A stretch of DNA of 40,030 nt from Anaerolineae bacterium (lineage in GTDB: Bacteria; Chloroflexota; Anaerolineae; S140-20), in contig JALUTT010000082.1 of assembly GCA_027021705.1 (NCBI GenBank), forward strand, positions 1 through 40,030, written 5' to 3'. Shown here one piece after another: positions 24,202 through 40,030 of the stretch. The position numbers were made by a program, and so were the translations under genes. The notes under the pieces are model-generated. The model ran no database searches and was not told the DNA's origin. It saw nothing but the letters and a program-made list of their open reading frames with translations. Each line of letters opens with the position of its first letter. The stretch's first letter is position 1.

Positions 24202-27200
24202 ATGTCCGAAGAAGCCACGCTGGCGACGTTGAAATCCGATTATGCCGAGAAGTACGGCTTTCGCGTTCCAGAGGACTACGTCTTCAAGGCCCGCAAGGGG
24301 CTAGACGAGGAGATCGTGCGGGAGATCTCCTGGCTCAAGGGGGAGCCGGGGTGGATGCTGGAGTTCCGGCTGAAGGCGCTGGAGATCTTCCGGCGCAAGC
24401 CGATGCCGACCTGGGGAGCCGACCTCTCGGCGATAGACTTTGACGACATCTACTACTACATCAAGCCGATCGAGGAACAGCAGCGGAGTTGGGACGACGT
24501 CCCCGAGGAGATCAAGACCACCTTTGACCGGCTGGGCATCCCCGAGGCGGAGCGCAAGTTCCTGGCCGGCGTAGGGGCCCAATACGAGTGCTTGAGTGGG
24601 GATACCCGTGTGTACACAGCTCGGGGATTGGTGCCAATCCGGCAGGTTGAGCCAGGTGACGTGGTCTTCTCGTTCGACGAGCAAGAGAATCGAATCGTCC
24701 CCGCCCGCGTCAAGGCCCGAGCATATAAGGGAGAGCGGGAGGTGTTTGAGGTGCGTGTGGGCACCCGGACAATCCGCGCGACGGCAAACCATCCCTTCTT
24801 GGTCTTGTCCTACGAGCGCAAACCCGGCAGACAGCGAGGCCGATACCGCCGCCAATGGAAGTACTTGTACGAGCTCAAACCAGGCGACCTGGTGGCCGTT
24901 GCCAAAGCACTGCCGGATGTAGGGCAGTCCTATCCCCTTACCCAACCTGAGATCAAGACGCAAGTTGTAGGGCGGAACCAGTCAACCGAGTACGTCTTGG
25001 ACATCAGCGACCGGTACAATCCCGTTACGCTACCCGAACGCACATCGGTTGACCTGATGTGGTGGCTGGGAGTCTACATCGGAGATGGCTTCATCCATTA
25101 TACGAAGGGGGCAGACAAAGCTCGCGTTGAGGTGGCCATCCCAGCCAGTCAAAAACAACTGCGTGCGGAGTTTGGCCGTGTCACCCACGAGTTGTTCGAC
25201 TTACCAGCAGTCAATGGGGATACCTATCGGCTGACCATTTACTCCACCATCCTGGCGCGCTACCTGGAGGCAAACGGTCTCGGCGGCACCGCCCACACCA
25301 AACGGGTACCTGAATGGGTGTATACACTGCCCGAAGAGGAGCGTCTAGCTTTCCTGGGTGGCTACATAGATGCCGATGGCTACGTGCGCGACCATGCTAA
25401 GAACCACGACATTGTGCTTACCAGCGCCAGCGAATCTCTCCTGCGCGACTTTCAGGCCTTGGCATCCCTGTGCGGCTTGCCCACGTCCAGGATTCACCGT
25501 TTCGAATCCAAGCACCCGTTCGAGGAAGGTCGAACCATTGTCGGCTACCGGCTCCAGATAGCCGGGGATTTTGAACGTGTCGGCTGCCGATCCCCAGACC
25601 GAGTAAGCCGTATGGGGAAACGACAGTTCTTCCACAACCACTCTAGTGCCAGAGGAACGTCCTTCCGCAACCACACCAACGAGTTCATAGGCTTTGTGAA
25701 GATAGAGCATATCGAGCCAGCCGGCGTTGAGCCCGTTTACGACATCGAAGTTGATGGCCCCCACAACTTTGTGGCCGAGGGGCTTATCGTCCACAACTCC
25801 GAAGTCGTCTATCACAGCATCCAGAAGCACCTGGAGGAGCAAGGGGTCATCTTCCTGGATACGGATACGGCGCTGAAGGAGCACCCAGAGTTCTTCCGAG
25901 AGTACTTCGGCACCATCGTTCCCCCCACCGACAACAAGTTCGCCGCCCTCAACTCGGCCGTCTGGTCGGGCGGGAGCTTCATCTACGTCCCGCCGGACGT
26001 CCACGTCGAGCTCCCTTTGCAGGCTTACTTCCGCATCAACGCCCAGAATATGGGGCAGTTCGAGCGGACCCTGATCATCGCCGACGAGGGAAGCTACGTC
26101 CACTACGTCGAGGGCTGTACGGCGCCCATCTACTCCACCGACTCCCTCCACGCCGCCGTGGTGGAGATCATCGTCAAGAAGGGGGCCCGGGTCCGCTACA
26201 CCACCATCCAGAACTGGTCCCACAACGTCTACAACCTGGTGACCAAACGGGCCGTGGCCTACGAAGACGCCACCATGGAGTGGATTGACGGTAATCTGGG
26301 GTGCCTGGCCGGGGAGACCCCAGTGCTGTTGAACAACGATGTCAAGCCCATTGCAGACGTTGAACCGGGCGATAAAGTGTTTACCCTGACGCCACACTTC
26401 ACCCTGGAAGCGCAACAAGTGGTGGCTAAAAAATACAGCGGACGACGACCTGTCTTCCGCCTCCGCACCGCCAACCACCGCGAGATCGTGGCCACAGCCA
26501 ATCATCCGTTCCTGACGCTGCGAAAGCAAGGACGCCACCAATCGCTCACCTGGCAACGCCTGGACCAACTCCACCCCGGCGATTATGTGGCCATCACCGG
26601 CGAGATCCCCGACAGGGGGGAACCTTACCCCCTGCCCGCTCCCCCACAGGTGCCACGGGCGAAACCCCTGCGCACCCCTCACGAAACCAACGAGGACTTG
26701 ATGTGGTTCCTGGGGTTCTATCTGGGGGATGGTTTCTGCGAAAAGACTCGCCTGAACATTGCTATCGTTCCAAATGACCCGGCCTATCCGCGCGTCGTGG
26801 GCTTGCTAAAGCAGCTCTTTGGCAAAGAAGGCACACTGTACCGCGGGCGTGTGTTGCGCGTTGCCTCCGCGCCATTGGTGCGTTGGTTGAAGAGCATTGG
26901 CTTCACCGGGAACGCGCGCCAAAAGCGGATCCCGGCGTGGGTATACCGGTTGCCCCGATCGCAGCGTGAAGCCCTGCTGAAGGGTTACATCGCTGCTGAT
27001 GGGTATGTCCGGGCCAACCATCGCAATATGTCCGTCACCAGTGTCAACCGGGAGTTGCTGGAGGACATCAAAATTCTGGCCATCAGTTGCGGCTGGAACC
27101 CGCTGAAAATCAGTGAGTGGCGACGGGTGGAGAAAAAGCCGTTGGGACGAGAGGTCAAAGAGTATCGTCATTACATGCTGTACTTCTCCGATGAAACTTT

Positions 27201-27843
27201 GGATGCGCCAGTGGTCTTTGTACGCATCAGCAACATCGAACCTGCTGGCGAGGCAGACACCTGGGATATTGAGGTAGAAGGCAGCCATAACTTCGTCGCC
27301 AATGGCTTCATCGTGCACAACAGCAAGATCACAATGAAATATCCGGCTGTCTACCTCCTGGGCAAGGGCGCCCACGGCGAGGTCCTTTCCATCGCCTTCG
27401 CCGGCCGGGGGCAGCACCAGGACGCCGGCGCCAAGATCGTCCACGCCGCCCCCTACACCAGCTCCAAGGTCACCTCCAAGTCCATCAGCATGGACGGCGG
27501 ACGGGCCAGCTACCGGGGGTTGCTCAAAGTGCACAAGGGCGCCCACCACGCCAGCTCCCACGTCGTCTGTGACGCGCTGCTGCTGGACGAGCACTCCCGC
27601 TCCGACACCTACCCCTACATCGAGATTGACGAAGAAGAGGTCACCATCGGGCACGAGGCGACGGTGAGCAAGATCGGCGAGGACCAGCTCTTCTACCTGA
27701 TGAGCCGGGGGCTGACGGAAGAAGAAGCGATCACGATGGTCGTCAGCGGCTTCATCGAGCCGATGGTCAAGGAGCTGCCGATGGAGTACGCCGTAGAGAT
27801 GAACCGGCTCATCCGGCTTCAGATGGAAGGGTCCATTGGTTAG
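24202..27843 (+). CDS. sufB: Fe-S cluster assembly protein SufB precursor with two inteins (470 aa after splicing)
   Basis: Extein motifs LGIPEAE, AQYE/SEVVYH, FAALNSAVWSGGSF, GQFERTLI, YVEGCTAP, GNLG/SKITMKYP, HEATVSKI, ELPMEYAVE. Confidence 0.97.
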   Translation: MSEEATLATLKSDYAEKYGFRVPEDYVFKARKGLDEEIVREISWLKGEPGWMLEFRLKALEIFRRKPMPTWGADLSAIDFDDIYYYIKPIEEQQRSWDDVPEEIKTTFDRLGIPEAERKFLAGVGAQYECLSGDTRVYTARGLVPIRQVEPGDVVFSFDEQENRIVPARVKARAYKGEREVFEVRVGTRTIRATANHPFLVLSYERKPGRQRGRYRRQWKYLYELKPGDLVAVAKALPDVGQSYPLTQPEIKTQVVGRNQSTEYVLDISDRYNPVTLPERTSVDLMWWLGVYIGDGFIHYTKGADKARVEVAIPASQKQLRAEFGRVTHELFDLPAVNGDTYRLTIYSTILARYLEANGLGGTAHTKRVPEWVYTLPEEERLAFLGGYIDADGYVRDHAKNHDIVLTSASESLLRDFQALASLCGLPTSRIHRFESKHPFEEGRTIVGYRLQIAGDFERVGCRSPDRVSRMGKRQFFHNHSSARGTSFRNHTNEFIGFVKIEHIEPAGVEPVYDIEVDGPHNFVAEGLIVHNSEVVYHSIQKHLEEQGVIFLDTDTALKEHPEFFREYFGTIVPPTDNKFAALNSAVWSGGSFIYVPPDVHVELPLQAYFRINAQNMGQFERTLIIADEGSYVHYVEGCTAPIYSTDSLHAAVVEIIVKKGARVRYTTIQNWSHNVYNLVTKRAVAYEDATMEWIDGNLGCLAGETPVLLNNDVKPIADVEPGDKVFTLTPHFTLEAQQVVAKKYSGRRPVFRLRTANHREIVATANHPFLTLRKQGRHQSLTWQRLDQLHPGDYVAITGEIPDRGEPYPLPAPPQVPRAKPLRTPHETNEDLMWFLGFYLGDGFCEKTRLNIAIVPNDPAYPRVVGLLKQLFGKEGTLYRGRVLRVASAPLVRWLKSIGFTGNARQKRIPAWVYRLPRSQREALLKGYIAADGYVRANHRNMSVTSVNRELLEDIKILAISCGWNPLKISEWRRVEKKPLGREVKEYRHYMLYFSDETLDAPVVFVRISNIEPAGEADTWDIEVEGSHNFVANGFIVHNSKITMKYPAVYLLGKGAHGEVLSIAFAGRGQHQDAGAKIVHAAPYTSSKVTSKSISMDGGRASYRGLLKVHKGAHHASSHVVCDALLLDEHSRSDTYPYIEIDEEEVTIGHEATVSKIGEDQLFYLMSRGLTEEEAITMVVSGFIEPMVKELPMEYAVEMNRLIRLQMEGSIG
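24589..25797 (+). mobile_element. Intein 1 in SufB (403 aa) with LAGLIDADG homing endonuclease
   Basis: CLSGDT..., block B ATANHPF, LGVYIGDG and FLGGYIDADG, ends VYDIEV...HNFVAEGLIVHN followed by Ser. Confidence 0.95.
26302..27321 (+). mobile_element. Intein 2 in SufB (340 aa) with LAGLIDADG homing endonuclease
   Basis: CLAGET..., ATANHPF, LGFYLGDG and LKGYIAADG, ends TWDIEV...HNFVANGFIVHN followed by Ser. Confidence 0.95.
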
Positions 27844-29206: not shown

Positions 29207-29496
29207 TCCTCAGTCCGCCGCCGTCCCGCTTGGTCGGGTGGTCGTCTGGTCGGGTGGTCGAGTGGTCAGGCAATTGAATGGTCGGCGGTCCGCCGTCGGT
29301 GGTCGGCGGTCGGGGTCAGGCAGTCCTCAGTCCGCCGCTAGGCCGCTTGGTCAGGTGGTCAAGTGGTCACGTGGTCAAATTGGTCGAGTGGTCCTCGGTC
29401 CTCAGTCCTCAGTCCGCCGCTTGGTCCGGTGGTCGGCGGTCCGCCGTCGGCGGTCCGCCGTCGGCAGTCTGCGGTCAGTCATCAGCGGTCGGCTGG
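29205..29496. repeat. Mosaic heptamer/octamer tract (CAGTCCT, GGTCGGC/GGTCCGC, GGTCNAGT)
   Basis: About 290 bp of GTC-anchored 7- and 8-nt units; block CAGTCCTCAGTCCGCCG occurs three times (first copy TAGT). Confidence 0.85.
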
Positions 29497-29665: not shown

Positions 29666-29672
29666 GGGGTGC

Positions 29673-29912
29673 GGTGATTACCCACAAGGGAGCGAGAGAG
29701 TGGTCCGTAGCGGGCCGTCCACGAATTTCTCACAAATGCACGAATGAGGCGGTCCTTCATTCGTGTATTCGTGCCCCATTCGTGGACGGCTAGTGGTTTG
29801 TCAACCGATATTTTGTGGGCGCGAAACAGCCTTATAGGAAGGTGCTCACACCCACAAATTCAGGGTTGACGGCCCACTAGTCTCCCTATCTCCAAAGATA
29901 TGGGTAACCACC
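29673..29912. mobile_element. MITE copy 2 (inverted relative to copy 1) carrying an 87-bp nested insertion
   Basis: TIRs GGTGATTACCCA / TGGGTAACCACC; direct repeat GTCAAGGGGT at 29661-29670 and 29914-29923. Confidence 0.88.
29794..29876. mobile_element. Nested mini-MITE inserted at CTAG (TA/CTAG target, IS630-like by inference)
   Basis: CTAG at 29790-29793 and 29877-29880; ends TGGTTTGTCAACC / GGTTGACGGCCCA; copy 1 has a single CTAG at this site. Confidence 0.82.
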
Positions 29913-29929
29913 GGTCAAGGGGTCACCGT

Positions 29930-30041
29930 CCCTCGCCCCTTGCTCCTTGCTCCGTTCCCCCTGCCCCCTGCCTCTCAGTCCTCGGTCCGCCGCTAAGCTG
30001 CTACGCCGCCGAGCCGCTAGTCGCTAGGCCGCTACTGCCGC
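29930..30041. repeat. Degenerate heptamer/octamer tract
   Basis: cccttgc tccttgc tccgttc cccctgc cccctgc, then gccgctaa gctgctac gccgccga gccgcta gtcgctag gccgctac. Confidence 0.7.
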
Positions 30042-30070
30042 TTGCCCCTTCGGCAGCTCAGAGGTATACT
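30042..30070 (+). promoter_or_regulatory. Probable sigma70 promoter of the sensor operon
   Basis: TTGCCC, 17 bp, TATACT, 42 bp before ATG 30113. Confidence 0.6.
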
Positions 30071-30112
30071 CAAGGGGGAACCGGACGTACCGATGACACG
30101 GAGAGGACCGAG

Positions 30113-31042
30113 ATGCGAACCCGATGGTGGAAACTGTCCATCTTCCTGCTGTTGGCGCTGGCGATGGTCTCGCTCGGTGGCTGCGCCACAGCCTATTCAG
30201 AACCCCTGCCCACGGTGCGCCTGAACGACCTGAGCCCGCTCCCCACGGTGAGCCCGCAGGTCACCCCCCTGCGGGTGGCCGTCGCCGCCATCGTCTCTCC
30301 CCAGGGGACGGTGGCCTCCTACCAGCCGCTGCTGGACTACTTGAGCCGGCGGCTGAACCGCCCCGTGGAGTTGGTCCAGCGGCGCACCTACGCCGAGGTC
30401 AACGACCTAATCCGCCACAATGAGGTAGACGTGGCCTTCATCTGCACCCGGGCCTACGTCCAGGGCCGGCGGGAGTTCGGCCTGGAGCTGCTGGCCATCC
30501 CCCAGGTGCAGGGGAAGACCGTCTACCACTCGCAGATCATCGTACGGGCCGACCTGCCCGCCCAACGTTTCGAGGATCTACGGGGCCTTGTCTTCGCCTT
30601 CACCGATCCCCTCTCCAACACCGGCTATCTCTACCCCAACGTCCTGCTCAAGCGGCTGGGGGAATCGCCCGACACCTTCTTCCGACGCACCTTCTTCACC
30701 TACAGCCACGACAACGCCATCTACGCCGTCGCCGAAGGGGTGGCTGATGCAGCGGGGGTGGACAGCCTGGTGCTGGACTACGCGATGGCCCGCGATCCAT
30801 CCCTGCGGGATCGCGTGCGCATCATCCACACCTCTCCCCCCTTCGGGATGCCGCCGGTGGTGGTGGGGCCGGACGTCCGGCCCCAGACCAAGGCATTGCT
30901 CGAAGAGATCCTCCTGGAGATGGCCGACACCCCCCAGGGCCAGCAGGCCCTAGAGGCGTTGGGGGTGGACCGCTTCGTGTTGGGACGGGACGAGGATTAC
31001 GACATGATCCGGGCGATGGAGGCGGAGCTAGATGAGCAGTAG
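30113..31042 (+). CDS. PhnD-family (AioX/ArxX/ArrX-like) substrate-binding lipoprotein
   Basis: Lipobox LGGC; VQRRTYAEV, DVAFIC, YHSQIIV, FAFTDPLSNTGYLYP, YSHDNAI, PPFGMPP. Confidence 0.85.
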   Translation: MRTRWWKLSIFLLLALAMVSLGGCATAYSEPLPTVRLNDLSPLPTVSPQVTPLRVAVAAIVSPQGTVASYQPLLDYLSRRLNRPVELVQRRTYAEVNDLIRHNEVDVAFICTRAYVQGRREFGLELLAIPQVQGKTVYHSQIIVRADLPAQRFEDLRGLVFAFTDPLSNTGYLYPNVLLKRLGESPDTFFRRTFFTYSHDNAIYAVAEGVADAAGVDSLVLDYAMARDPSLRDRVRIIHTSPPFGMPPVVVGPDVRPQTKALLEEILLEMADTPQGQQALEALGVDRFVLGRDEDYDMIRAMEAELDEQ

Positions 31043-31202
31043 GGCGGGTTTCTTACCTGCCCACCCAGGTTCCAAGCTGGGCGGCTGAGGAAGGCCGCCC
31101 CACATCCCTTCACATCCCCTTCACACCCTGTGGAGGGCAGGCTTCTTACCCACCCACGCAGGTTCCTGGGCGAGATTAGGCGGCTGAGAAAAGCCGCCCC
31201 GT
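31039..31202. repeat. Two copies of a GTAG-type REP-like doublet
   Basis: GTAGGGCGGGTTTCTTACCTGCCC...GGCGGCTGAGGAAGGCCGCCCCAC (31039-31103) and GGAGGGCAGGCTTCTTACCCACCC...GGCGGCTGAGAAAAGCCGCCCC (31132-31200), separated by a short CATCCCTTCA duplication. Confidence 0.75.
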
Positions 31203-31223
31203 GTCCTAGGTGAGGTCCTGCCG

Positions 31224-32681
31224 ATGGCTCCGAAATCCTGGGAACACTGGCGCCACCGCCTCTGGCACATGCTTGGGGGCGTCAGCGTCCGCACCAAAAT
31301 CCTGGGCATCGTCCTGGCGGTGATCCTCCTGCCGGGCCTCCTGGTCACCTATCAGGTGCGCTCGGCGCTGGTCCGCACCATGCGGGAGCAACTTCAGCAG
31401 CAGAGCCTCTCGGTGGCCCGGGACGTCGCCGCCCGGAGCACCGACCTGGTGCTCATCAACGACCTCTACGCCCTGAGCCGCCTTCTCCAGGACACCCAGA
31501 AGTACGACCCGGATGTCCGCTACCTCTTCATCCTGGACACCGAAGGGCACGTGCTGGCCCACACCTTCGAGGGCGGATTCCCCCTCGACCTGCTGGAGGT
31601 CAACACCCTGCCGCCGGGCAGCTCCCACCACCTCCAGCCCCTGCTCACCGAGGAAGGGGTGGTCTGGGATACCGCCGTGCCCATCTTCGAGGGGCGGGCC
31701 GGCGTGGCCCGGGTGGGCCTCGGCGAGCAGCGGATGTGGCAGGTCGTCAACGCCATCACCGGACAGATGGTGCTCAGCATGCTCCTCATCTCCATCGTGG
31801 GCATCGGGGCCGCCTTCACCCTGACCTGGCTGCTCACCCGGCCCATCTTGGAGCTGGTGGCGGCCACCGAGCGGGTCGGGCGGGGCGACTACTCCCCCCG
31901 AGTCTCCCGCTGGGCGGACGACGAGATCGGGGCCCTGGCCGAAGCCTTCAACCGGATGGTCGCCCAGTTGGCCCAGGCCGAGGCGGAGCGGGCCGAGCGG
32001 GAGCGGCTGCGCCAGTTCTACCTGAAGCGGGTCATCCACGCCCAGGAGGAGGAGCGGCAGCGCATCGCCCGGGAGCTGCACGACGAGACGGGGCAGGCCC
32101 TGGCCTCCCTGATGGTGGGGCTGCGCAACGTGGAAGAGGCCCCCACCCCCGAAGAGATGCGCCGGCGTCTCCAAGACCTGCGCCAGGTGCTGGCCGGCAC
32201 CTTGGAACGGGTCCGCCGCCTGGCCTTCGACCTGCGCCCCTCCGTCCTGGACGACCTGGGGCTGGTGGCCGCGCTGCACCGCTACGCCCAGCAGTACCGG
32301 GAGCGGTTCGGCATCACCGCCGAGGTCCAGGCTGTCGGCCTCGACGGTCAGCGGTTGTCGCCGGAGGTGGAGACGAGCATCTACCGCATCGTCCAAGAAG
32401 CGATGACCAACGCCGCCAAGTACGCCGCCTGCTCCCGCATCAGCGTCCTCCTCCAACTCCGAGAGCGACAGCTCTCGGTCATCGTCGAGGACGACGGCTG
32501 CGGCTTCGACGTGGATCAGGTCTTCAGCGAGGAAGCGGGGCAGAGCAAGCTGGGCCTGTACGGCATGCAGGAGCGGGCCGAACTGATCGGCGGCCGGCTG
32601 GACATCGAATCCCGTCCGGGCGGAGGCACGGCCATCTACCTGCGCGTGCCCCTCGAGGCGGGAGAGTGCGTGGAGGGATGA
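31224..32681 (+). CDS. Membrane sensor histidine kinase (2 TM, Cache-like, HAMP, HisKA_3)
   Basis: DEIGALAEAFNRM; EERQRIARELHDETGQ; QEAMTNAAKY; DDGCGFD; GLYGMQER. Confidence 0.93.
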   Translation: MAPKSWEHWRHRLWHMLGGVSVRTKILGIVLAVILLPGLLVTYQVRSALVRTMREQLQQQSLSVARDVAARSTDLVLINDLYALSRLLQDTQKYDPDVRYLFILDTEGHVLAHTFEGGFPLDLLEVNTLPPGSSHHLQPLLTEEGVVWDTAVPIFEGRAGVARVGLGEQRMWQVVNAITGQMVLSMLLISIVGIGAAFTLTWLLTRPILELVAATERVGRGDYSPRVSRWADDEIGALAEAFNRMVAQLAQAEAERAERERLRQFYLKRVIHAQEEERQRIARELHDETGQALASLMVGLRNVEEAPTPEEMRRRLQDLRQVLAGTLERVRRLAFDLRPSVLDDLGLVAALHRYAQQYRERFGITAEVQAVGLDGQRLSPEVETSIYRIVQEAMTNAAKYAACSRISVLLQLRERQLSVIVEDDGCGFDVDQVFSEEAGQSKLGLYGMQERAELIGGRLDIESRPGGGTAIYLRVPLEAGECVEG

Positions 32682-32684
32682 GCG

Positions 32685-33347
32685 ATGGGAGAGATGAGGC
32701 CCATTCGGGTCCTGTTGGCCGATGACCACGCGGTGCTGCGGGCCGGATTGCGCCTGCTCATCAACGCCCAGCCCGATATGGAGACGGTGGGGGAGGCTCA
32801 GGACGGCCTGGAGACGCTGGCCCAAGCGGAAGCGCTCCAACCCGACGTGATCCTCCTGGACCTGAGCATGCCCCGGCTGGGTGGGCTCACCATCCTGCGC
32901 CAGTTGCACGACTGCGCCCCTGAGGCCCAGGTGCTTGTCCTGACCATGCACGCTGACGAGGCCTATCTGCGTGAGGCGCTGCGCCAGGGCGCAGCCGGCT
33001 ATGTGGTCAAGGCCGCCGCCGACCAGGAACTCCTCTCCGCCATCCGTGCCGTCGCCCGGGGCGAGATCTACGTCCATCCCTCGATGACGCGGGCGCTGCT
33101 GGAAAGCCTGCTGCCCCGCAGCGAGCCGGAGCAGCGGGACCCCTGGGAGGAGCTGAGCGAGCGCGAGCAGCAGGTGATCCACCGGGTGGCGATGGGGTAC
33201 ACCAACCGGGAGATCGCCGGACAGTTGCACCTGAGCGTCAAGACGGTGGAGACCTATCGGGCGCGGGCGATGGAGAAGCTGGGCCTGCGCAGCCGTGCCC
33301 AGTTGGTGGAGTATGCTTTGCGCCGGGGGCTGTTGAGCAGCGAGTGA
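32685..33347 (+). CDS. NarL/LuxR-family response regulator
   Basis: LADDH, LDLSMP, LTMH; HTH LSERE...GYTNREIAGQLHLSVKTVETYRARAMEKL. Confidence 0.95.
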   Translation: MGEMRPIRVLLADDHAVLRAGLRLLINAQPDMETVGEAQDGLETLAQAEALQPDVILLDLSMPRLGGLTILRQLHDCAPEAQVLVLTMHADEAYLREALRQGAAGYVVKAAADQELLSAIRAVARGEIYVHPSMTRALLESLLPRSEPEQRDPWEELSEREQQVIHRVAMGYTNREIAGQLHLSVKTVETYRARAMEKLGLRSRAQLVEYALRRGLLSSE

Positions 33348-33357
33348 GCCTCCTTCT

Positions 33358-33514
33358 TGTCAGGGTTTCCCCGACAGCGAGTCCGGTAAATCCCCGGCAC
33401 CCCCACCCCCCGCAGTCAAACGTTCCCCGACAGCCCCTTCGGAAATCCCTGACCTCTCCGGTTCAGGAAGTCAAACTTTCCCCGCTACACGGCGTCCCCT
33501 CTCTCTGCTAAGAT
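33358..33514 (+). promoter_or_regulatory. Five phased regulator boxes and an extended -10 for the rhodanese-reductase operon
   Basis: TCCCCGAC-like half-sites at 33368, 33391, 33424, 33446, 33479; first is within near-palindrome TGTCAGGG-TTT-CCCCGACA; TGC-TAAGAT at 33506-33514; no consensus -35. Confidence 0.7.
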
Positions 33515-33586
33515 AATCGTGAGCGACCATCCAGGTCACTTCTCTCCTTCCACCCTAGATCTCTATCCGGCTCCCAGAGCAGAAAG

Positions 33587-34261
33587 ATGGCCCGGCGACG
33601 ATCCTATCTGATCCTGCCCTTCCTCCTCGCCCTGATGGTGGGGGGATGTCAGAGCATCGCCAACTCGACGGGATCGGCCTCTCCCACCCCTTCCAACTCC
33701 CCGGACTATCGGGTGCTGGTCGAGCAGGCCCAGGCGGCCTTTCAGGCTGCCGATTACGCCCAGGCCCTGGACCTGGCCCGCCAGGCCGTGGCCGCCAACC
33801 CCGAGGACAACACCGCCTGGGAGCTCTACCGCCAGGCCAGCATCGCCCAGGCCGCCGATGACTACCTGAGCAGGCTGCCCGACCATCGCTACCGCCTCCC
33901 CGTGGAGCGCTTCGTCCGGGATCAGGTGAACCACACCAAGGACTGGTTTATCGTAGACGTGCGGGAGCCGGAGGAGTACGCCGCCGGCCACATCGAAGGC
34001 GCGGTGAACATCCCGCTGCGCGAGCTGATGCGCCATCTGGATGAACTGCCCGACAGCCGGACGGCTCCCATCCTGGTCTACTGCCATTCTCAGAAACGGG
34101 CCACCCACGCCCTGGTGATCTTGCACGAGCTGGGCTACCTCAAGGCGTACAACCTCCAGGGGGGCTACGCGGCCTACCAGGACTGGCTGCAACACCACCC
34201 GCTCCCCACCCCCGGCCCGACGCCCACGCCGGCACCCGAGGAGCCGGACTTCGGCTGCTGA
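33587..34261 (+). CDS. Rhodanese-domain lipoprotein with TPR-like helices and C-terminal Gly-Cys tail
   Basis: Lipobox [25 protein letters not shown]; active loop [13 protein letters not shown]; ends [18 protein letters not shown]. Confidence 0.9.
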
Positions 34262-34341
34262 GAAGGCGCTCCGATCGTTGCCCCGGTGGGAGGCCACCGA
34301 TTCGCGGGGGCCCCCACCCCAGTGCACATAAGGAGGTTCCT

Positions 34342-35061
34342 ATGCCCATCGTACAAGAGATGGAGAACGCCATCGTCCGTATGATGGAGGACCTGCAGCG
34401 GGCGCTGCAGAAACCGCCATCAGAACGCCGCTGGGGGATGGTCATTGATCTGACCAAGTGCGTGGCTTGCGATGCCTGCACCGTCTCCTGCAAGGCCGAG
34501 AACAAGACCCCCCCCGGCGTCAACTACAACGTCGTGCTCAAGGAAGAGGTCGGCACCTATCCCAACGTGCGGGAGGTCTTCCTGCCCCGCCCCTGTATGC
34601 AATGCGACAACCCGCCCTGCGTGGACGTCTGTCCGGTCGGCGCCACCTGGAAGAACGAAGAAGGCGTTGTGGTCATTGACTACGACGTCTGCATCGGCTG
34701 TCGCTACTGCATCACCGCCTGTCCCTACGGAGCCCGCACCTTCGACTTCGGCGAGTGGTACACCGAGGGGACACCGGTGCTGGCCGTCTACGAGACGGCT
34801 CCCACCTTCGAGTACAGCGAGGAGCGGGTGCGCCAGGAGGGGGCATCGCCGGTGGGCAACGTGCGCAAGTGCCACTTCTGCCTGCACCGCGTGCACGAAG
34901 GGCTCCTGCCGGCCTGCATCAACGACTGCATCGGTCGGGCCCGCTACTTTGGCGACCTGAACGACCCGGACAGCTTGGTCTCCGAACTGCTGCGGGAGCG
35001 ATATGCCTTCCGCCTGAAGGAAGAGCTGGGCACTCAGCCCAAGGTCTTCTACCTGTCGTGA
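34342..35061 (+). CDS. Four-cluster [4Fe-4S] electron-transfer subunit (TtrB/SrdB/NrfC-like)
   Basis: [41 protein letters not shown]...PACINDC; RBS AAGGAGG. Confidence 0.93.
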
Positions 35062-35071
35062 GGAGGCAGCC

Positions 35072-36322
35072 ATGAGCAACAACAATAAAGGTCTGAAGCT
35101 CGCCTACGGCGTCGTCGTGCTGATCATGCTGATCATCGGTGCGGTGGGCCTCTACTGGCGTCTCACCACCGGCCACCGCATGGCCGGCTACGGTCAGTTG
35201 ATTGTCTGGGGGCTGTGGGTGGCGATGTACATCTACTTTATCGGCCTCTCCGCTGGGGCCTTCCTCATCTCCGCCCTGGTCTACGCCTTCGGCGTTGAGC
35301 GCTTCCGCCCCATCGCCCGGCTGGCCCTCTTCACCGCCCTCGTCTCCCTGCTGGTCGCCCTGCTTCACATCTGGTTCGACCTGGGCCACATGGGCCGCTT
35401 CTACGAGGTCTACACCCGCCCCAACTTCCTCTCGATGATGGCCTGGATGGTCTGGCTTTACACAGCCTACTTCCTCCTCCTGGTGGCCGAGCTCTGGTTC
35501 GACGCCCGCCAGGATTTGGTGCGCTGGGCCGAGAAGCCGGGGTGGGCCGGCCGACTCAGCCGTCTGCTGAGCTTGGGCAGCAAGGACCTCTCGGAGGCGG
35601 GCCGGGCCCGTGACGAGAAGGTGACGAGAGTCCTGGGCGTCATCGGCGTCCCCCTGGCCGTGATGTTCCACGGCGGTGTCGGAGCCCTCTTCGGCGTCGT
35701 CTCCGCCCGCCCGGCCTGGCACAGCGGTCTCTTCCCCCTCATCTTCCTGGTGGCCGCCCTGGCCTCCGGCGGCGGCCTGCTGATGGCCGTCTACGCCTTC
35801 CTGGCTCCAGACCGGGGCACACCGGAGCACCGCCGTCTGGTGGAGGACCTGGGCAAGCTGGTGCTGGGCCTGGTGCTGTTGGACGCCCTCTTCACCTTCG
35901 CCGAGTACTCCATCGCCCTCTACGGTTCCATCCCCGGCGACGTGGCCCCGCTGCTGGCCGCGATGACCGGTCCTTTCTGGTACGTCTTCTGGATCGGCCA
36001 GATCGGCCTGGGGCTGGTCGTGCCGGTGATCTTGCTGAGCTGGAAGCGCACCCGCCAATCCCCCGGATGGGCGGGCGTGGCCGGCCTCGCCGTCGTGCTG
36101 GCCTTCGTCGGCGTGCGGCTGAACATCGTCATCCCGCCCCTCTCGGTGCCGGAGATCAAAGGACTGGTCGAGGCGGTGCCCTCTCCTCGGATGACCACCC
36201 TCTACGTCCCCACCGCGATGGAGTGGTTCCTCAGCATCGGCATCATCGGCCTGGGCATCGCCCTGTTCGCCCTCGGATACAACCTGCTGCCGCTCAAGCC
36301 CCAAGTGGCGAAGGAGGCGTGA
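35072..36322 (+). CDS. NrfD/PsrC-family membrane anchor (TtrC/SrdC-like)
   Basis: WGLWVAMYIYFIGLSAG, DLGHMGRF, SMMAW, RPAWHS, RLNIVIP. Confidence 0.92.
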   Translation: MSNNNKGLKLAYGVVVLIMLIIGAVGLYWRLTTGHRMAGYGQLIVWGLWVAMYIYFIGLSAGAFLISALVYAFGVERFRPIARLALFTALVSLLVALLHIWFDLGHMGRFYEVYTRPNFLSMMAWMVWLYTAYFLLLVAELWFDARQDLVRWAEKPGWAGRLSRLLSLGSKDLSEAGRARDEKVTRVLGVIGVPLAVMFHGGVGALFGVVSARPAWHSGLFPLIFLVAALASGGGLLMAVYAFLAPDRGTPEHRRLVEDLGKLVLGLVLLDALFTFAEYSIALYGSIPGDVAPLLAAMTGPFWYVFWIGQIGLGLVVPVILLSWKRTRQSPGWAGVAGLAVVLAFVGVRLNIVIPPLSVPEIKGLVEAVPSPRMTTLYVPTAMEWFLSIGIIGLGIALFALGYNLLPLKPQVAKEA

Positions 36323-36323
36323 A

Positions 36324-39300
36324 ATGGGCAAAAACGGAAATGGCAACGGCGTAAACCTGCTGCAGACCGAGATCACCCGCCGCGATTTCATCAAGACGTC
36401 GGCACTCGTCGGCGGCTCCCTGGCGTTGGCCTCCGGCGTCAACGCGGCCTTCCGCCGTGTGGCCGAGATGAGCCACACCCTGAGCGGGGCGGCCGCCGCC
36501 GGCGGGTACCCCCTGAACCGACCCGAGAACATTATCTACAGCGTCTGTCTCCAGTGCCACACCGCCTGTACCATCAAGGGGAAGCTGCTGGACGGGGTGC
36601 TGGTCAAGATTGACGGCAACCCCTACAGCCCGATGAACATGCTGCCTCACCTCCCCTACGACACCCCGCTGGCAGAAGCGGCGAAGGTGGACGCCAAGCT
36701 CTGCCCCAAGGGCCAGGCCGGCGTGCAGAGCCTCTACGACCCCTACCGCATCACCAAAGTGCTCAAACGGGCCGGCAAGCGGGGGGAGAACAAGTGGGAG
36801 GTAATCTCCTTCGACCAGGCCATTGACGAGATCGTCAACGGAGGCACCTTCGCCGACGGCACCCGCACCCCCGGCCTGAAGGAGATCTGGGCCGTGCGCG
36901 ACCCCGACCTGATGGCAGCCCTGAAGGCCGACGCGATGGCCGTCGCCAGCGGCGAGATGAGCCTGGACGAATTCAAGAGCAAGCACGCGGACCACCTGGA
37001 CCTGCTCATTGACCCCGACCACCCCGACCTGGGTCCTCGGAACAACCAGTTCGTCTTCCTGGCGGGGCGCATCGAGCACGGGCGCAAGGAGTTCGCCAAG
37101 CGCTGGCTGAAGGATGCCTTCGGCTCTGTCAATTGGTACGAGCACACCACCATCTGCGAGCAGTCCCACCATATCGCCTTCCAGCAGATGAGCAACCAGT
37201 ACAAAGGTGGGGGCAAGTGGGGAGGTGGCAAAACCCACCTCAAGCCCGACTTCGCCAACGCCGAGATGGTGATCTTCTTCGGGACCGGGGCCTTCGAGGC
37301 CAACTTCGGCCCCACGCCGATGAGCGAACTGGTCACCTGGTCCCTCACCTACCGCAATATGAAGATCGCGGTGGTGGACCCTCGTCTGAGCAAGACGGCG
37401 GCCAAGGCCAAATGGTGGCTGCCCGTCAAGCCGGGCACGGACGCGGCCCTAGCTCTGGCGATGGGGCGCTGGATCGTGGAGAACGAGCGCTACGACGCCA
37501 CCTACCTGACCAATGCCAACAAGGCGGCCGCTGCTGCTGATGGCGAGACCACCTGGACCAACGCCACTTACCTGGTGAAGATTGAGGGTGGAAAGCCGAC
37601 GCGACTGCTGCGCCCCGAGGAGGCCGGCCTGGGCGAGGTGGACGGCTTCGTCGTCAGCAAGGACGGTCAGCTCATCGCTGTGGACCCCAACGACGCCGAG
37701 AACCCGGTGGAAGGCGACCTATTCGCCGAAGGCCAGGTCAACGGTATCGCCTACAAGAGTGCCTTCTTGCTGTACAAAGAGCTCGCCTTCGAGCACAGCC
37801 TGGAGAAGTGGTCAGAGATCTGCGGCATCCCCGTGCGCAAGATCGTCGAGGTGGCGCGGGAGTTCACCAGCCACGGCAAGAAGGCCGCCGTGGACCTCTA
37901 CCGGGGTCCGGTGCAGCACACCAACGGCTACTACACCGCCCAGGCGATCATCACCCTCAACCTGCTCATCGGCAACACGGACTGGGTGGGTGGCATGGGC
38001 AAGGGTGGTGGCCACTGGCACGAGCTGGGGGACAAGGCAGGTGGTCCCTTCAACCTGAAGAAGCTGCATCCGGGTAAGCTGGGCTCTTTCGGCGTGACCC
38101 TCACCCGGGAGAAGTGGCACTACGAGAAGAGCACCCTCTTCCAGCGGGATGGCTATCCGGCCAAGCGCCCCTGGTACCCCTACACGGGTAACGTCTATCA
38201 GGAGGTGATCCCCAGCGCGGCCGACGGCTACCCCTACCCCATCAAGGCCCTCTTCCTGCACAAGGGGACGCCCGGCTACGCCAGCCCGGCCGGCAATCCG
38301 ACCCTGGAGGCCATCGCCGATCCCAACGTCATCCCCTTGGTAATCGCCTGCGACGTGGTCATCGGCGAGACCAGCATGTACGCCGATTACCTCTTCCCCG
38401 ACACGGCCATCTGGGAGCGGTGGGGCACGCCGCACACCACCCCGGCCGTGCAACCCAAGGTCAGCAAGATACGCCAGCCCATCGTCGAGCCGCTGGTGGA
38501 GAAGGTGACGGTCTTCGGCGAGGAGCAGCCCATCTCTATGGAAGCGATCATGCTGGCCATCGCCGAGCGGCTGGGCCTGCCCGGCTACGGCAAGGATGGC
38601 TTCGGCCCCGGAATGGACTTCAACCGGCGCGAGGACTACTTCCTGAAGATGGCCGCCAACCTGGCCTTCGGCGACAAGGAGGACGGCTCCGATGCCGTGC
38701 CCGAGGCCAACGATGAGGAGATGGCCATCTTCCGAGCTGCCCGCGCCCACTTCTCCCCTGCTATGTTCGACGAAGCCCGGTGGAAGAAGGCCATTGGCAA
38801 CGACGAATCCCTCTGGCGGCGGGTCGTCTACCTGCTCAACCGGGGAGGCCGCTTCGAGGACTTCAGCAAGGTCTACAAAGGCGCCAAGCTGGCTCACCAG
38901 TTCAAAGGGATGTTCAGCATCTACGTGGACAACGTGGCCGCCGGCAAGCACAGCCTGACGGGCGAGCCCTTCTCCGGCCTGCCCATCTACGAGCCGGTGA
39001 AGGATGCCGCCGGTCGGCCCGTAGACCAGGAAGACTACCCCTTCCGCCTCTTCACCTACAAGGAGATCTACGGCGGTCAGTCCCGCACCGTTGGCAACTA
39101 CTGGGCCCAGCTGGGCCTGGCCCAGGAGAACTGGGTCCTGATGAACAAGGCCGATGCCGACCGGCTGGGGCTGAAGAACGGCGATACGGTCCGCCTGGTC
39201 TCCAAGACCAACCCCGACGGCGTGTGGCGTCTCCCCAACGGGGAGAACCGGCCCGTGGCCGGCAAGCTCAAGGTCATCCAGGGCATTCGTCCGGGGACCG

Positions 39301-39515
39301 TGGCCGCCTCCTGGCACTTCGGCCACTGGGCCTACGGGGCCAGCGATGTCGTCATTGACGGACAGATGGTCAAAGGAGACCCCCGCCGGGCCACCGGCCT
39401 CTGCCCCAACGCCGTGATGCTGGAAGACCCGGTGCTCAAGAACGTCAGCCTGACCGATCCTATCGGCGGCAGTGCCAGCTTCTACGACACCCGGGTCAAG
39501 GTCGAGAAAGTGTAG
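36324..39515 (+). CDS. Tat-exported Mo/W-bisPGD oxidoreductase catalytic subunit, TtrA/SrdA-like
   Basis: Tat motif TRRDFIK; CLQCHTAC...CPKG; KIDGNPYSP; putative metal-ligand Cys in HTTICEQSH; ETSMYADYLFPD; SWHFGHW; 1063 aa; B-C-A gene order. Confidence 0.88.
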   Translation: MGKNGNGNGVNLLQTEITRRDFIKTSALVGGSLALASGVNAAFRRVAEMSHTLSGAAAAGGYPLNRPENIIYSVCLQCHTACTIKGKLLDGVLVKIDGNPYSPMNMLPHLPYDTPLAEAAKVDAKLCPKGQAGVQSLYDPYRITKVLKRAGKRGENKWEVISFDQAIDEIVNGGTFADGTRTPGLKEIWAVRDPDLMAALKADAMAVASGEMSLDEFKSKHADHLDLLIDPDHPDLGPRNNQFVFLAGRIEHGRKEFAKRWLKDAFGSVNWYEHTTICEQSHHIAFQQMSNQYKGGGKWGGGKTHLKPDFANAEMVIFFGTGAFEANFGPTPMSELVTWSLTYRNMKIAVVDPRLSKTAAKAKWWLPVKPGTDAALALAMGRWIVENERYDATYLTNANKAAAAADGETTWTNATYLVKIEGGKPTRLLRPEEAGLGEVDGFVVSKDGQLIAVDPNDAENPVEGDLFAEGQVNGIAYKSAFLLYKELAFEHSLEKWSEICGIPVRKIVEVAREFTSHGKKAAVDLYRGPVQHTNGYYTAQAIITLNLLIGNTDWVGGMGKGGGHWHELGDKAGGPFNLKKLHPGKLGSFGVTLTREKWHYEKSTLFQRDGYPAKRPWYPYTGNVYQEVIPSAADGYPYPIKALFLHKGTPGYASPAGNPTLEAIADPNVIPLVIACDVVIGETSMYADYLFPDTAIWERWGTPHTTPAVQPKVSKIRQPIVEPLVEKVTVFGEEQPISMEAIMLAIAERLGLPGYGKDGFGPGMDFNRREDYFLKMAANLAFGDKEDGSDAVPEANDEEMAIFRAARAHFSPAMFDEARWKKAIGNDESLWRRVVYLLNRGGRFEDFSKVYKGAKLAHQFKGMFSIYVDNVAAGKHSLTGEPFSGLPIYEPVKDAAGRPVDQEDYPFRLFTYKEIYGGQSRTVGNYWAQLGLAQENWVLMNKADADRLGLKNGDTVRLVSKTNPDGVWRLPNGENRPVAGKLKVIQGIRPGTVAASWHFGHWAYGASDVVIDGQMVKGDPRRATGLCPNAVMLEDPVLKNVSLTDPIGGSASFYDTRVKVEKV

Positions 39516-39554: not shown

Positions 39555-39597
39555 AAGGGGCGGCCCCCGGTAGTGGGGGTCGTCCCTTTCGTCTTTT
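39555..39597 (+). terminator. Intrinsic terminator after the reductase operon
   Basis: AAGGGGCGGCCCCC-GGTAGT-GGGGGTCGTCCCTT (G-U pairs on + strand) followed by TCGTCTTTT. Confidence 0.7.
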
Positions 39598-39641: not shown

Positions 39642-40030
39642 GGCCACGGATGACACGGATGGAACGGATGCTCACAGGCCCCTTGGAAACCATCCGCGCC
39701 GATCCGTCGCATCCGCGTTGACCCGTGCCCCATCTGATAGGCCACGGATGACACGGAGGGGACGGATGCTCACGGGCCCCTTGGCAACCACCCGCGCCGA
39801 TCCGCCGCACCCGCGTTGACCCGCGTCCCATCTGATAGGCCACGGATGACACAGATGGGACAGATGCCCACGGGCCTCTTGGCAACCATCCGCGCCGATC
39901 CGTCGCACCCGCGTTGACCCGCGTCCCATCTGATAGGCCACGGATGACACAGATGGGACAGATGCCCACGGGCCTCTTGGCAACCATCCGCGCCGATCCG
40001 TCGCACCCGCGTTGACCCGCGTCCCATCTG
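39642..40030. repeat. 98-bp tandem repeat array, at least 4 units, truncated by window end
   Basis: Units start GGCCACGGATGACAC at 39642, 39740, 39838, 39936; no spacers. Confidence 0.95.

Follow-up and report, generated by a model that had tools for sequence, protein, structure and literature searches.

The window analysed here is the whole 40,030-nucleotide stretch of contig JALUTT010000082.1 (positions 1 to 40,030, forward strand) from the Anaerolineae bacterium assembly GCA_027021705.1. Between positions 30113 and 39515, seven open reading frames (ORFs) follow one another on the plus strand in the order X-S-R-rhodanese-B-C-A, where X, S and R would form a three-component oxyanion sensor and B, C and A a respiratory molybdoenzyme. 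This content and order had been proposed in an earlier note made from the letters alone, and ORF and domain searches found all seven genes, with the families claimed. The cassette is real and widespread, and comparison of its sequences indicates that its substrate is probably arsenate. Its features and flanking signals are as follows.

30042-30070, plus strand: sigma-70-like promoter candidate upstream of X, 43 bases 5' of the X start (9 of 12 consensus positions; a consensus match only)
30113-31042, plus strand: X, ArrX-type oxyanion-binding lipoprotein (Phosphonate-bd, E 5e-71)
31224-32681, plus strand: S, sensor kinase with two transmembrane segments (sCache_3_2, HAMP, HisKA_3 with His286, HATPase_c)
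32685-33347, plus strand: R, NarL/FixJ-type response regulator (REC with Asp59, LuxR HTH, no AAA+ domain)
33359-33375, 33415-33431, 33437-33453 (inverted) and 33470-33484, no strand assigned: four related operator-like boxes resembling a putative ArrR site
33587-34261, plus strand: rhodanese lipoprotein (lipobox Cys21, TPR-like hairpin, CX4R loop with Cys166, tail Cys224)
34342-35061, plus strand: B, electron-transfer subunit with four [4Fe-4S] clusters, without a Tat (twin-arginine translocation) signal
35072-36322, plus strand: C, NrfD/PsrC-type membrane anchor (about 10 hydrophobic segments by a crude hydropathy count)
36324-39515, plus strand: A, Ttr-like, Tat-exported Mo/W-bis(pyranopterin guanine dinucleotide) catalytic subunit of 1063 amino acids (G248-R249, H274, and C278 as predicted Mo ligand)
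39555-39597, plus strand: intrinsic-terminator-like hairpin 3' of A (15-pair stem, T-rich tail)

The sensor protein

Among proteins of solved structure, the best relative of X was ArrX of Chrysiogenes arsenatis (PDB 6X6B; 223 bits, E 3.7e-65), followed by AioX (142 bits), phosphite and phosphonate binders (85 bits or less) and the PhnD entry 3P7I (48 bits). The pocket of arsenic sensors is made of Y88, C106, Y131, S161, S163, H192 and D210, and PhnD does not have this Cys (PMC5908839). In the alignment, Y93, C111, Y138, S168, N169, T170, H199 and D217 of X correspond to Y88, C106, Y131, S161, N162, S163, H192 and D210 of NT-26 AioX. Six of the seven AioX pocket residues are thus identical, Cys106 included (C111), and S163 is replaced by T. 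The ArxX-type protein of locus L237 has the same pocket string as X, down to the T substitution and the Cys. The signalling loop of X is short and polar, lacks V56/F57 of AioX, and aligns with the loop of ArrX, not with that of AioX/ArxX; a shorter, more polar loop is what was described for ArrX (PMC5908839). Isothermal titration calorimetry in the same study showed that ArrX binds arsenate (1 µM) and phosphate (150 µM), and that tetrathionate, thiosulfate, selenate and antimonite are not bound.

The pocket Cys was present in 40 of 43 X-like proteins encoded beside related enzymes, the other three forming a separate, phosphite-binder-like group. It is absent from PhnD/PtxB and from the sensor domains of TtrS, which do not have the pocket. 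In a tree built without ArrX (all trees were made with FastTree and carry local supports), the X proteins and one Bacillus plasmid protein joined AioX/ArxX with support 0.93, apart from PhnD/PtxB/TtrS. A transport PhnD is ruled out by the scores against solved relatives, the pocket Cys and the tree. The earlier note had read X, which it saw without an ABC permease or ATPase, as a sensor of the AioX/ArxX/ArrX kind, and both points hold: no transport ATPase or permease adjoins X, the genes upstream being tRNA-Arg and sufCBD, and X is also syntenic with the kinase elsewhere. A longer X frame starting at 29900 was considered, and the 30113 start was preferred for its promoter-like site and ribosome site; the resulting 309-amino-acid form is also the one annotated in public sets.

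The Bacillus plasmid protein belongs to an X-S-R trio (L239:2447-5416) in which Ser replaces the Cys of X. This trio is divergent from an MFS transporter gene, and there is no molybdoenzyme gene in the 5.8 kb of sequence covered.

The regulator and its putative operator

R consists of a REC and a LuxR HTH domain, and is FixJ-like as ArrR is, whereas AioR and ArxR differ by an AAA+ domain. The four related boxes lie in the spacer between R and the rhodanese gene (33348-33586), in agreement with the multi-box promoter suggested earlier. They are similar to the putative ArrR site given in PMC5908839, with a half-site spacer one base shorter. Of 38 X-bearing loci (window included), 12 had a similar upstream box, compared with 2 of 33 loci lacking X; shuffling gave rates of mostly 0-7% per locus. 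The pattern had been fitted in part to the window, the loci are related, and the slice of L011 was mis-cut. With a loose pattern (3 mismatches) there was no enrichment across the whole window (154 occurrences versus 137 +/- 13). The distribution supports an ArrR-like operator rather than proving it, and binding of R to the boxes is putative.

The catalytic subunit and its partners

A scored best with the TtrA model, at 536 bits for a cut-off of 1750, and reached 135 bits with the ArrA model, whose cut-off is 1600. Canonical ArrA is about 850 amino acids long. The earlier note had taken the B-C-A order and a catalytic subunit of some 1000 residues as the mark of the Ttr/Srd lineage, which is the TtrA/SrdA enzyme lineage defined in PMC10100899 and PMC7331816; the order stands, and A is Ttr-like, with 1063 residues. 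B lacks the Tat leader found on the TtrB of locus L075, and the crude count of hydrophobic segments gave 10 for C versus 9 for TtrC (true TtrC being a nine-helix protein).

A Gly-Arg (GR) pair, corresponding to R165 of ArrA, was found in all the Arr, Arx and Ttr-like arsenate reductases compared in PMC12949373, and true Ttr is without it. G248-R249 of A aligns with the GR of ArrA (PDB 6CZ7), and H274 and C278 with its His and Cys. Roles of these two ArrA residues were reportedly described by Glasser in 2018. Of 72 aligned sequences, 68 carried the pair; an annotated TtrA and three distant homologues did not. In a wider set it was found in 101 of 110, an Arx-like protein included.

Two named families do not fit A. 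Against a true tetrathionate reductase TtrBCA, although its B-C-A order fits, stand the TtrA score, the presence of GR and the B subunit without Tat leader. Against a canonical ArrA or ArxA stand the ArrA score, the length, and an identity of 29% to the ArxA-like protein of L237; no ArxB' gene is found in the cassette.

The GR-bearing relatives of A fall into subclade I (78 sequences, window A included) and subclade II (20 sequences), which share about 50% identity and join with support 0.999. Deeper order was unstable: the enzyme of L074 grouped with TtrA despite its GR, and subclade I itself had a support of only 0.73-0.87. These trees were built without the PSR-1, PAE1265, MROS_1076, SrdA and AnrA sequences, and the homologues retrieved for A included none named from PSR-1, M. 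roseus or P. aerophilum, nor a named SrdA.

Distribution and arsenic genes

An ArrX-type X was found near A in 26 of 71 genome loci. Among the 33 loci with at least 7 kb of upstream sequence, 19 had such an X and three only a Cys-less binder. The full seven-gene order recurred in eight of the 71 loci, all eight from Chloroflexota, many loci being too short to show the order; a survey of the cassette across genomes had been proposed earlier. Matches to A (E 1e-100 or better) were present in 85 of 401 genomes of the host class, and in 68 of 274 high-quality ones. Cultured carriers include Deferrisoma camini and Dissulfurirhabdus thermomarina.

Arsenic resistance genes (acr3, arsC, arsR or an arsE-like thioredoxin gene) flank the enzyme at L041, L045 and L053 among the 71 loci, and a lone arsR-like gene is found in L010. 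They also flank five of 18 hand-picked GR-type regions, plus L251 and L252. The arsenic-type matches of the host genome itself are restricted to a low-molecular-weight ArsC-like and an ArsP-like protein.

Three observations concern relatives of the enzyme. A GR-bearing Ttr-like B-C-A operon (L074:10052-15447) lies inside an ars island of Citrobacter/Enterobacter plasmids, and is a candidate operon for respiring arsenate without ArrA in enterobacteria. Two genomes of the class, G174 and G014, have a second, GR-less TtrA-like copy (L218, L219) in addition to the GR-type enzyme, and such pairs lend themselves to comparing substrates. In many Chloroflexota loci (e.g. L017:9641-12181), A is directly followed by genes for a small cytochrome c, an Mrp/ApbC protein and an FmdE-like protein, none of which adjoins it in the window.

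A rhodanese lipoprotein with a conserved cysteine tail

The first gene after the boxes encodes a lipobox, a TPR-like helical hairpin, a rhodanese domain, a Pro/Thr linker and an acidic tail ending in Gly-Cys (Cys224). Its structure model had a pLDDT of 68, with the Pro/Thr linker and residues 207-224 predicted disordered. The rhodanese loop is of the CX4R form, with Cys166 intact; a Cdc25/Acr2-type rhodanese arsenate reductase is thereby rejected, since the loop of that family is HCx5R (PMC10135228).

Using a generic rhodanese profile, a match within 4 kb of A was found in 26 of 64 subclade-I loci, or 19 of the 34 with enough flank (to be compared with 0 of 11 for the sister subclade), and in none of 12 subclade-II and none of 12 other loci. 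This count leaves aside 29 loci that were short or duplicates, subclade II was represented by hand-picked loci, and subclade is confounded with habitat and kinship. Of these 26 A-linked rhodaneses, 25 end in acidic-x-Gly-Cys and the remaining one is cut by a contig end. As a control, a terminal Cys was found in 1 of 92 generic rhodanese ORFs, namely the matches of a metagenome scan with the rhodanese alignment, which returned generic rhodaneses only. Readthrough of the TGA stop that follows Gly-Cys, as selenocysteine, was considered (the host genome has selA, selB and tRNA-Sec) and is ruled out, because nine of 20 complete family members end with TAA or TAG.

The family was detected in 19 of the 401 class genomes, of which 18 also match A and the last has an A fragment beside it. 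In another sample, of 401 genomes from the phylum of L037, all five genomes with a rhodanese match have a subclade-I enzyme at most 6 kb away. At the class locus L253, the rhodanese gene is next to a B-C-TorD set, of which the catalytic gene falls outside the contig.

A shorter rhodanese, lacking the TPR part, is encoded at six loci, of which five have the label Bacteroidota. In the four that were read, the loop Cys is changed to Ser and the tail is kept. The tail Cys is therefore better conserved than the catalytic one. This speaks for a thiol arm, on the model of SoxY, and against simple sulfur transfer. The rhodanese may act as such an arm for arsenite or thioarsenate. A Protein Atlas search gave TPR leads only, below 0.8, and no description of a Cys-tailed rhodanese associated with these enzymes was found in titles and abstracts, most subscription literature being outside that search. 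The conserved Cys tail, which the earlier note had missed, is the least explained part of the cassette.

Proposed function and alternatives

Taken together, the sensor pocket, the GR motif, the ArrR-like boxes and the ars neighbours converge on arsenate. We consider it likely, from these sequence features, that an ArrXSR-type sensor and a Ttr-like B-C-A enzyme work here as an arsenate-induced respiratory arsenate reductase. X, anchored at the cell surface, would bind As(V) and stimulate the kinase S, which would phosphorylate R; R would then bind the boxes at 33359-33484 and switch on the rhodanese-B-C-A operon. Electrons would flow from menaquinol through C and B to A, and the exported A, on the outer side of the membrane, would bind arsenate through R249 and reduce it to arsenite. 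The rhodanese would probably be an accessory thiol carrier, whose Cys224 tail reaches into the funnel of A and removes As(III) or sulfur; this is the weakest step of the scheme.

The earlier note had proposed an inducible respiration module for a sulfur, selenium or arsenic oxyanion. Its pairing of a sensor with a reductase stands. Its statement that the substrate cannot be read from sequence was too cautious, given the convergence on arsenate, and the novelty it implied for a sensor of this type joined to a Ttr-clade enzyme does not hold, such a layout being already described in Melioribacter roseus (PMC5492636).

A number of points weigh against arsenate respiration. Eleven of the 33 loci with at least 7 kb upstream have no X. 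The host genome, 94.9% complete, gave no acr3 match, and no ArsB or ArsM above cut-off, and acr3 was found in just 19 of 40 hand-picked carriers, a set without non-carrier control. A distant enzyme of the host genome, L231, also has GR in the same column, and the GR rule still awaits mutagenesis according to PMC12949373. Specificity is not set by pocket residues alone (PMC5908839), and the induction of M. roseus ttrA was not statistically clear (PMC5492636). Peptides of Anaeromyxobacter-targeted primers (supplement of PMC11462812) match subclade II better than I, so that the PSR-1-type tested enzyme probably sits in the sister subclade II, and subclade I holds no experimentally tested member that could be placed. 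Finally, the named close relatives of A include sulfur disproportionators, organisms in which PMC12949373 notes Ttr-like clades of unknown function, and two Dissulfuribacter Ttr homologues, whose subclade was not placed, rose on sulfite/H2 (PMC13490349).

These last two reports keep alive an explanation in which a sulfur compound (polysulfide, tetrathionate, thiosulfate or sulfite) is the acceptor used by A and the sensor is re-tuned or vestigial. The rhodanese would then be a carrier like Sud of Wolinella, a rhodanese that carries sulfur. The intact loop Cys of the operon rhodanese and the hydrothermal-vent habitat would suit it, but GR is present, B has no Tat signal, the TtrA score is far under cut-off, and ArrX bound neither tetrathionate nor thiosulfate (PMC5908839). 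Moreover, the loop Cys needed for sulfur transfer is gone from the rhodaneses of Bacteroidota, and G174 and G014 have a separate GR-less TtrA-like copy. We regard sulfur reduction as quite unlikely.

Reduction of selenate (SrdBCA-like) or antimonate appears highly improbable. SrdA belongs to the same lineage, with B-C-A order, and a selenite reductase operon has the rhodanese-domain genes srrE/srrF (PMC12481199), but selenate was not bound by ArrX (PMC5908839) and the neighbours are ars genes; SrdA and AnrA are not among the tree sequences. Vent fluids supply reduced arsenic, and the pocket string shared with the ArxX-type protein, Cys included, would fit an enzyme that works in the opposite direction and oxidises arsenite anaerobically, like Arx, with As(III) as the ligand sensed. 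Such a function would be very surprising, however, because the loop is ArrX-like, the ArrX score is far above that of AioX, R has no AAA+ domain as in AioR/ArxR, and A is distant from the ArxA-like protein, with no ArxB' gene.

Beyond arsenate respiration as such, subclade I could be a respiratory system with which marine and vent bacteria of sulfidic settings handle thioarsenates. The sensor would detect As(V) or thio-As(V), and the terminal Cys of the rhodanese would swing to bring sulfur or As(III) to the Mo site or take it away. This proposal is speculative and rather unlikely as it stands. Thioarsenates form in sulfidic geothermal waters and springs (PMC4220137), and, if true, the proposal would put a name to the enzyme behind a coupled respiration of arsenic and sulfur, spread over at least four phyla. 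The Cys-tailed rhodanese, as a possible fourth component, offers a handle on microbial thioarsenate processing.

Comparison with known systems

The core layout of sensor and enzyme is already described; what is new is subclade I, with its lack of a tested member, and the Cys-tailed rhodanese. In M. roseus, a PhnD-like protein, kinase and regulator ('ArrTSR') are encoded directly upstream of a Ttr-clade locus beside arsRPCB, a role in arsenate respiration was proposed, and ttrA was raised by arsenate (Gavrilov 2017, PMC5492636). The ars operon adjoins there and none does here, where a TPR-rhodanese lipoprotein leads the operon; the word rhodanese is absent from the main text of that paper. ArrXSR of C. 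arsenatis shares the X-S-R order, the Cys pocket, the short loop, the FixJ-like regulator and, putatively, a similar operator box, but controls a canonical ArrAB (about 850 residues) instead of a 1063-residue Ttr-like B-C-A enzyme, and the box in the window is one base shorter (PMC5908839). The Ttr-like arsenate reductases of Anaeromyxobacter PSR-1 and Pyrobaculum aerophilum (PAE1265) have the same lineage, GR and Ttr-type subunit set, as papers citing them describe; the Anaeromyxobacter type differs in being probably of subclade II, at about 50% identity, where no rhodanese was found (0 of 11 loci). TtrRS-BCA of Salmonella and Shewanella resembles the cassette in its B-C-A order, PhnD-fold sensing domain and LuxR-type regulator, but in TtrS the binding domain and the kinase are one protein, with no Cys pocket, TtrA has no GR and is about 31% identical to A, and TtrB has a Tat signal. 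A rhodanese with a periplasm-facing Mo reductase is also known from Wolinella (Sud). SrrE/SrrF are a similar case (PMC12481199). Both belong to another enzyme lineage (Psr/Srr), and no acidic, Cys-ended tail was found described there in the text available.

Chloroflexota are listed among the carriers of Ttr-like putative arsenate reductases (PMC11362583), and Chloroflexota ttrA transcripts were reported from paddy soil (PMC11462812). Keyword searches joining ttrA, arrX and arsenate, or Ttr-like arsenate reductase and Chloroflex-, returned no literature, most subscription papers being outside their scope. Surveys based on arrA alone overlook Ttr-like enzymes: the host genome has no ArrA match, and with the family present in 85 class genomes, arsenate respiration may be common and overlooked among Anaerolineae. 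Here a sensor that can be read is linked to a subclade without tested member, and since cultured carriers are available, the substrate question is directly testable.

Genomic surroundings

The GC content of the cassette genes (0.63-0.69) is similar to that of the genome (0.66). An 8,555-base contig from the probable source run, likewise a hydrothermal-vent metagenome, covers positions 29884-38438, and near-identical DNA spans the cassette stretch in two hydrothermal-vent runs from another study; there was no RNA run among the listed holders of the stretch. Close homologues of A come from metagenome-assembled genomes of Anaerolineae/Chloroflexota, most of them 76-91% identical, which agrees with the host proposed earlier: Chloroflexota, with the class probable. 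The tyrS of the host genome also clusters with a sequence bearing the label Chloroflexota. The contig stops 515 bases past A, and genes further downstream are beyond view.

Past the terminator, a 98-base tandem repeat (39642-40030; 4 copies, 94% identity) runs off the contig end. Short imperfect repeats and palindromic elements are found around tRNA-Arg and between X and S (29231-29476, 29671-29914 and 31041-31200); that at 29671-29914 was very deep in read mapping and is probably a dispersed genomic repeat. Upstream, sufB (24202-27843; 1213 amino acids) carries two intein insertions with LAGLIDADG domains.

The host genome contains a second cassette (L001:5262-14902, G000:C76), composed of a Cys-less PhnD-like protein, a PAS/GAF HisKA_3 kinase and a NarL regulator, then B-A-D-C. 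Its catalytic subunit of 941 amino acids is nearest to PhsA, far under all cut-offs, and its substrate is probably a different oxyanion. Its B subunit is 62% identical to that of the window.

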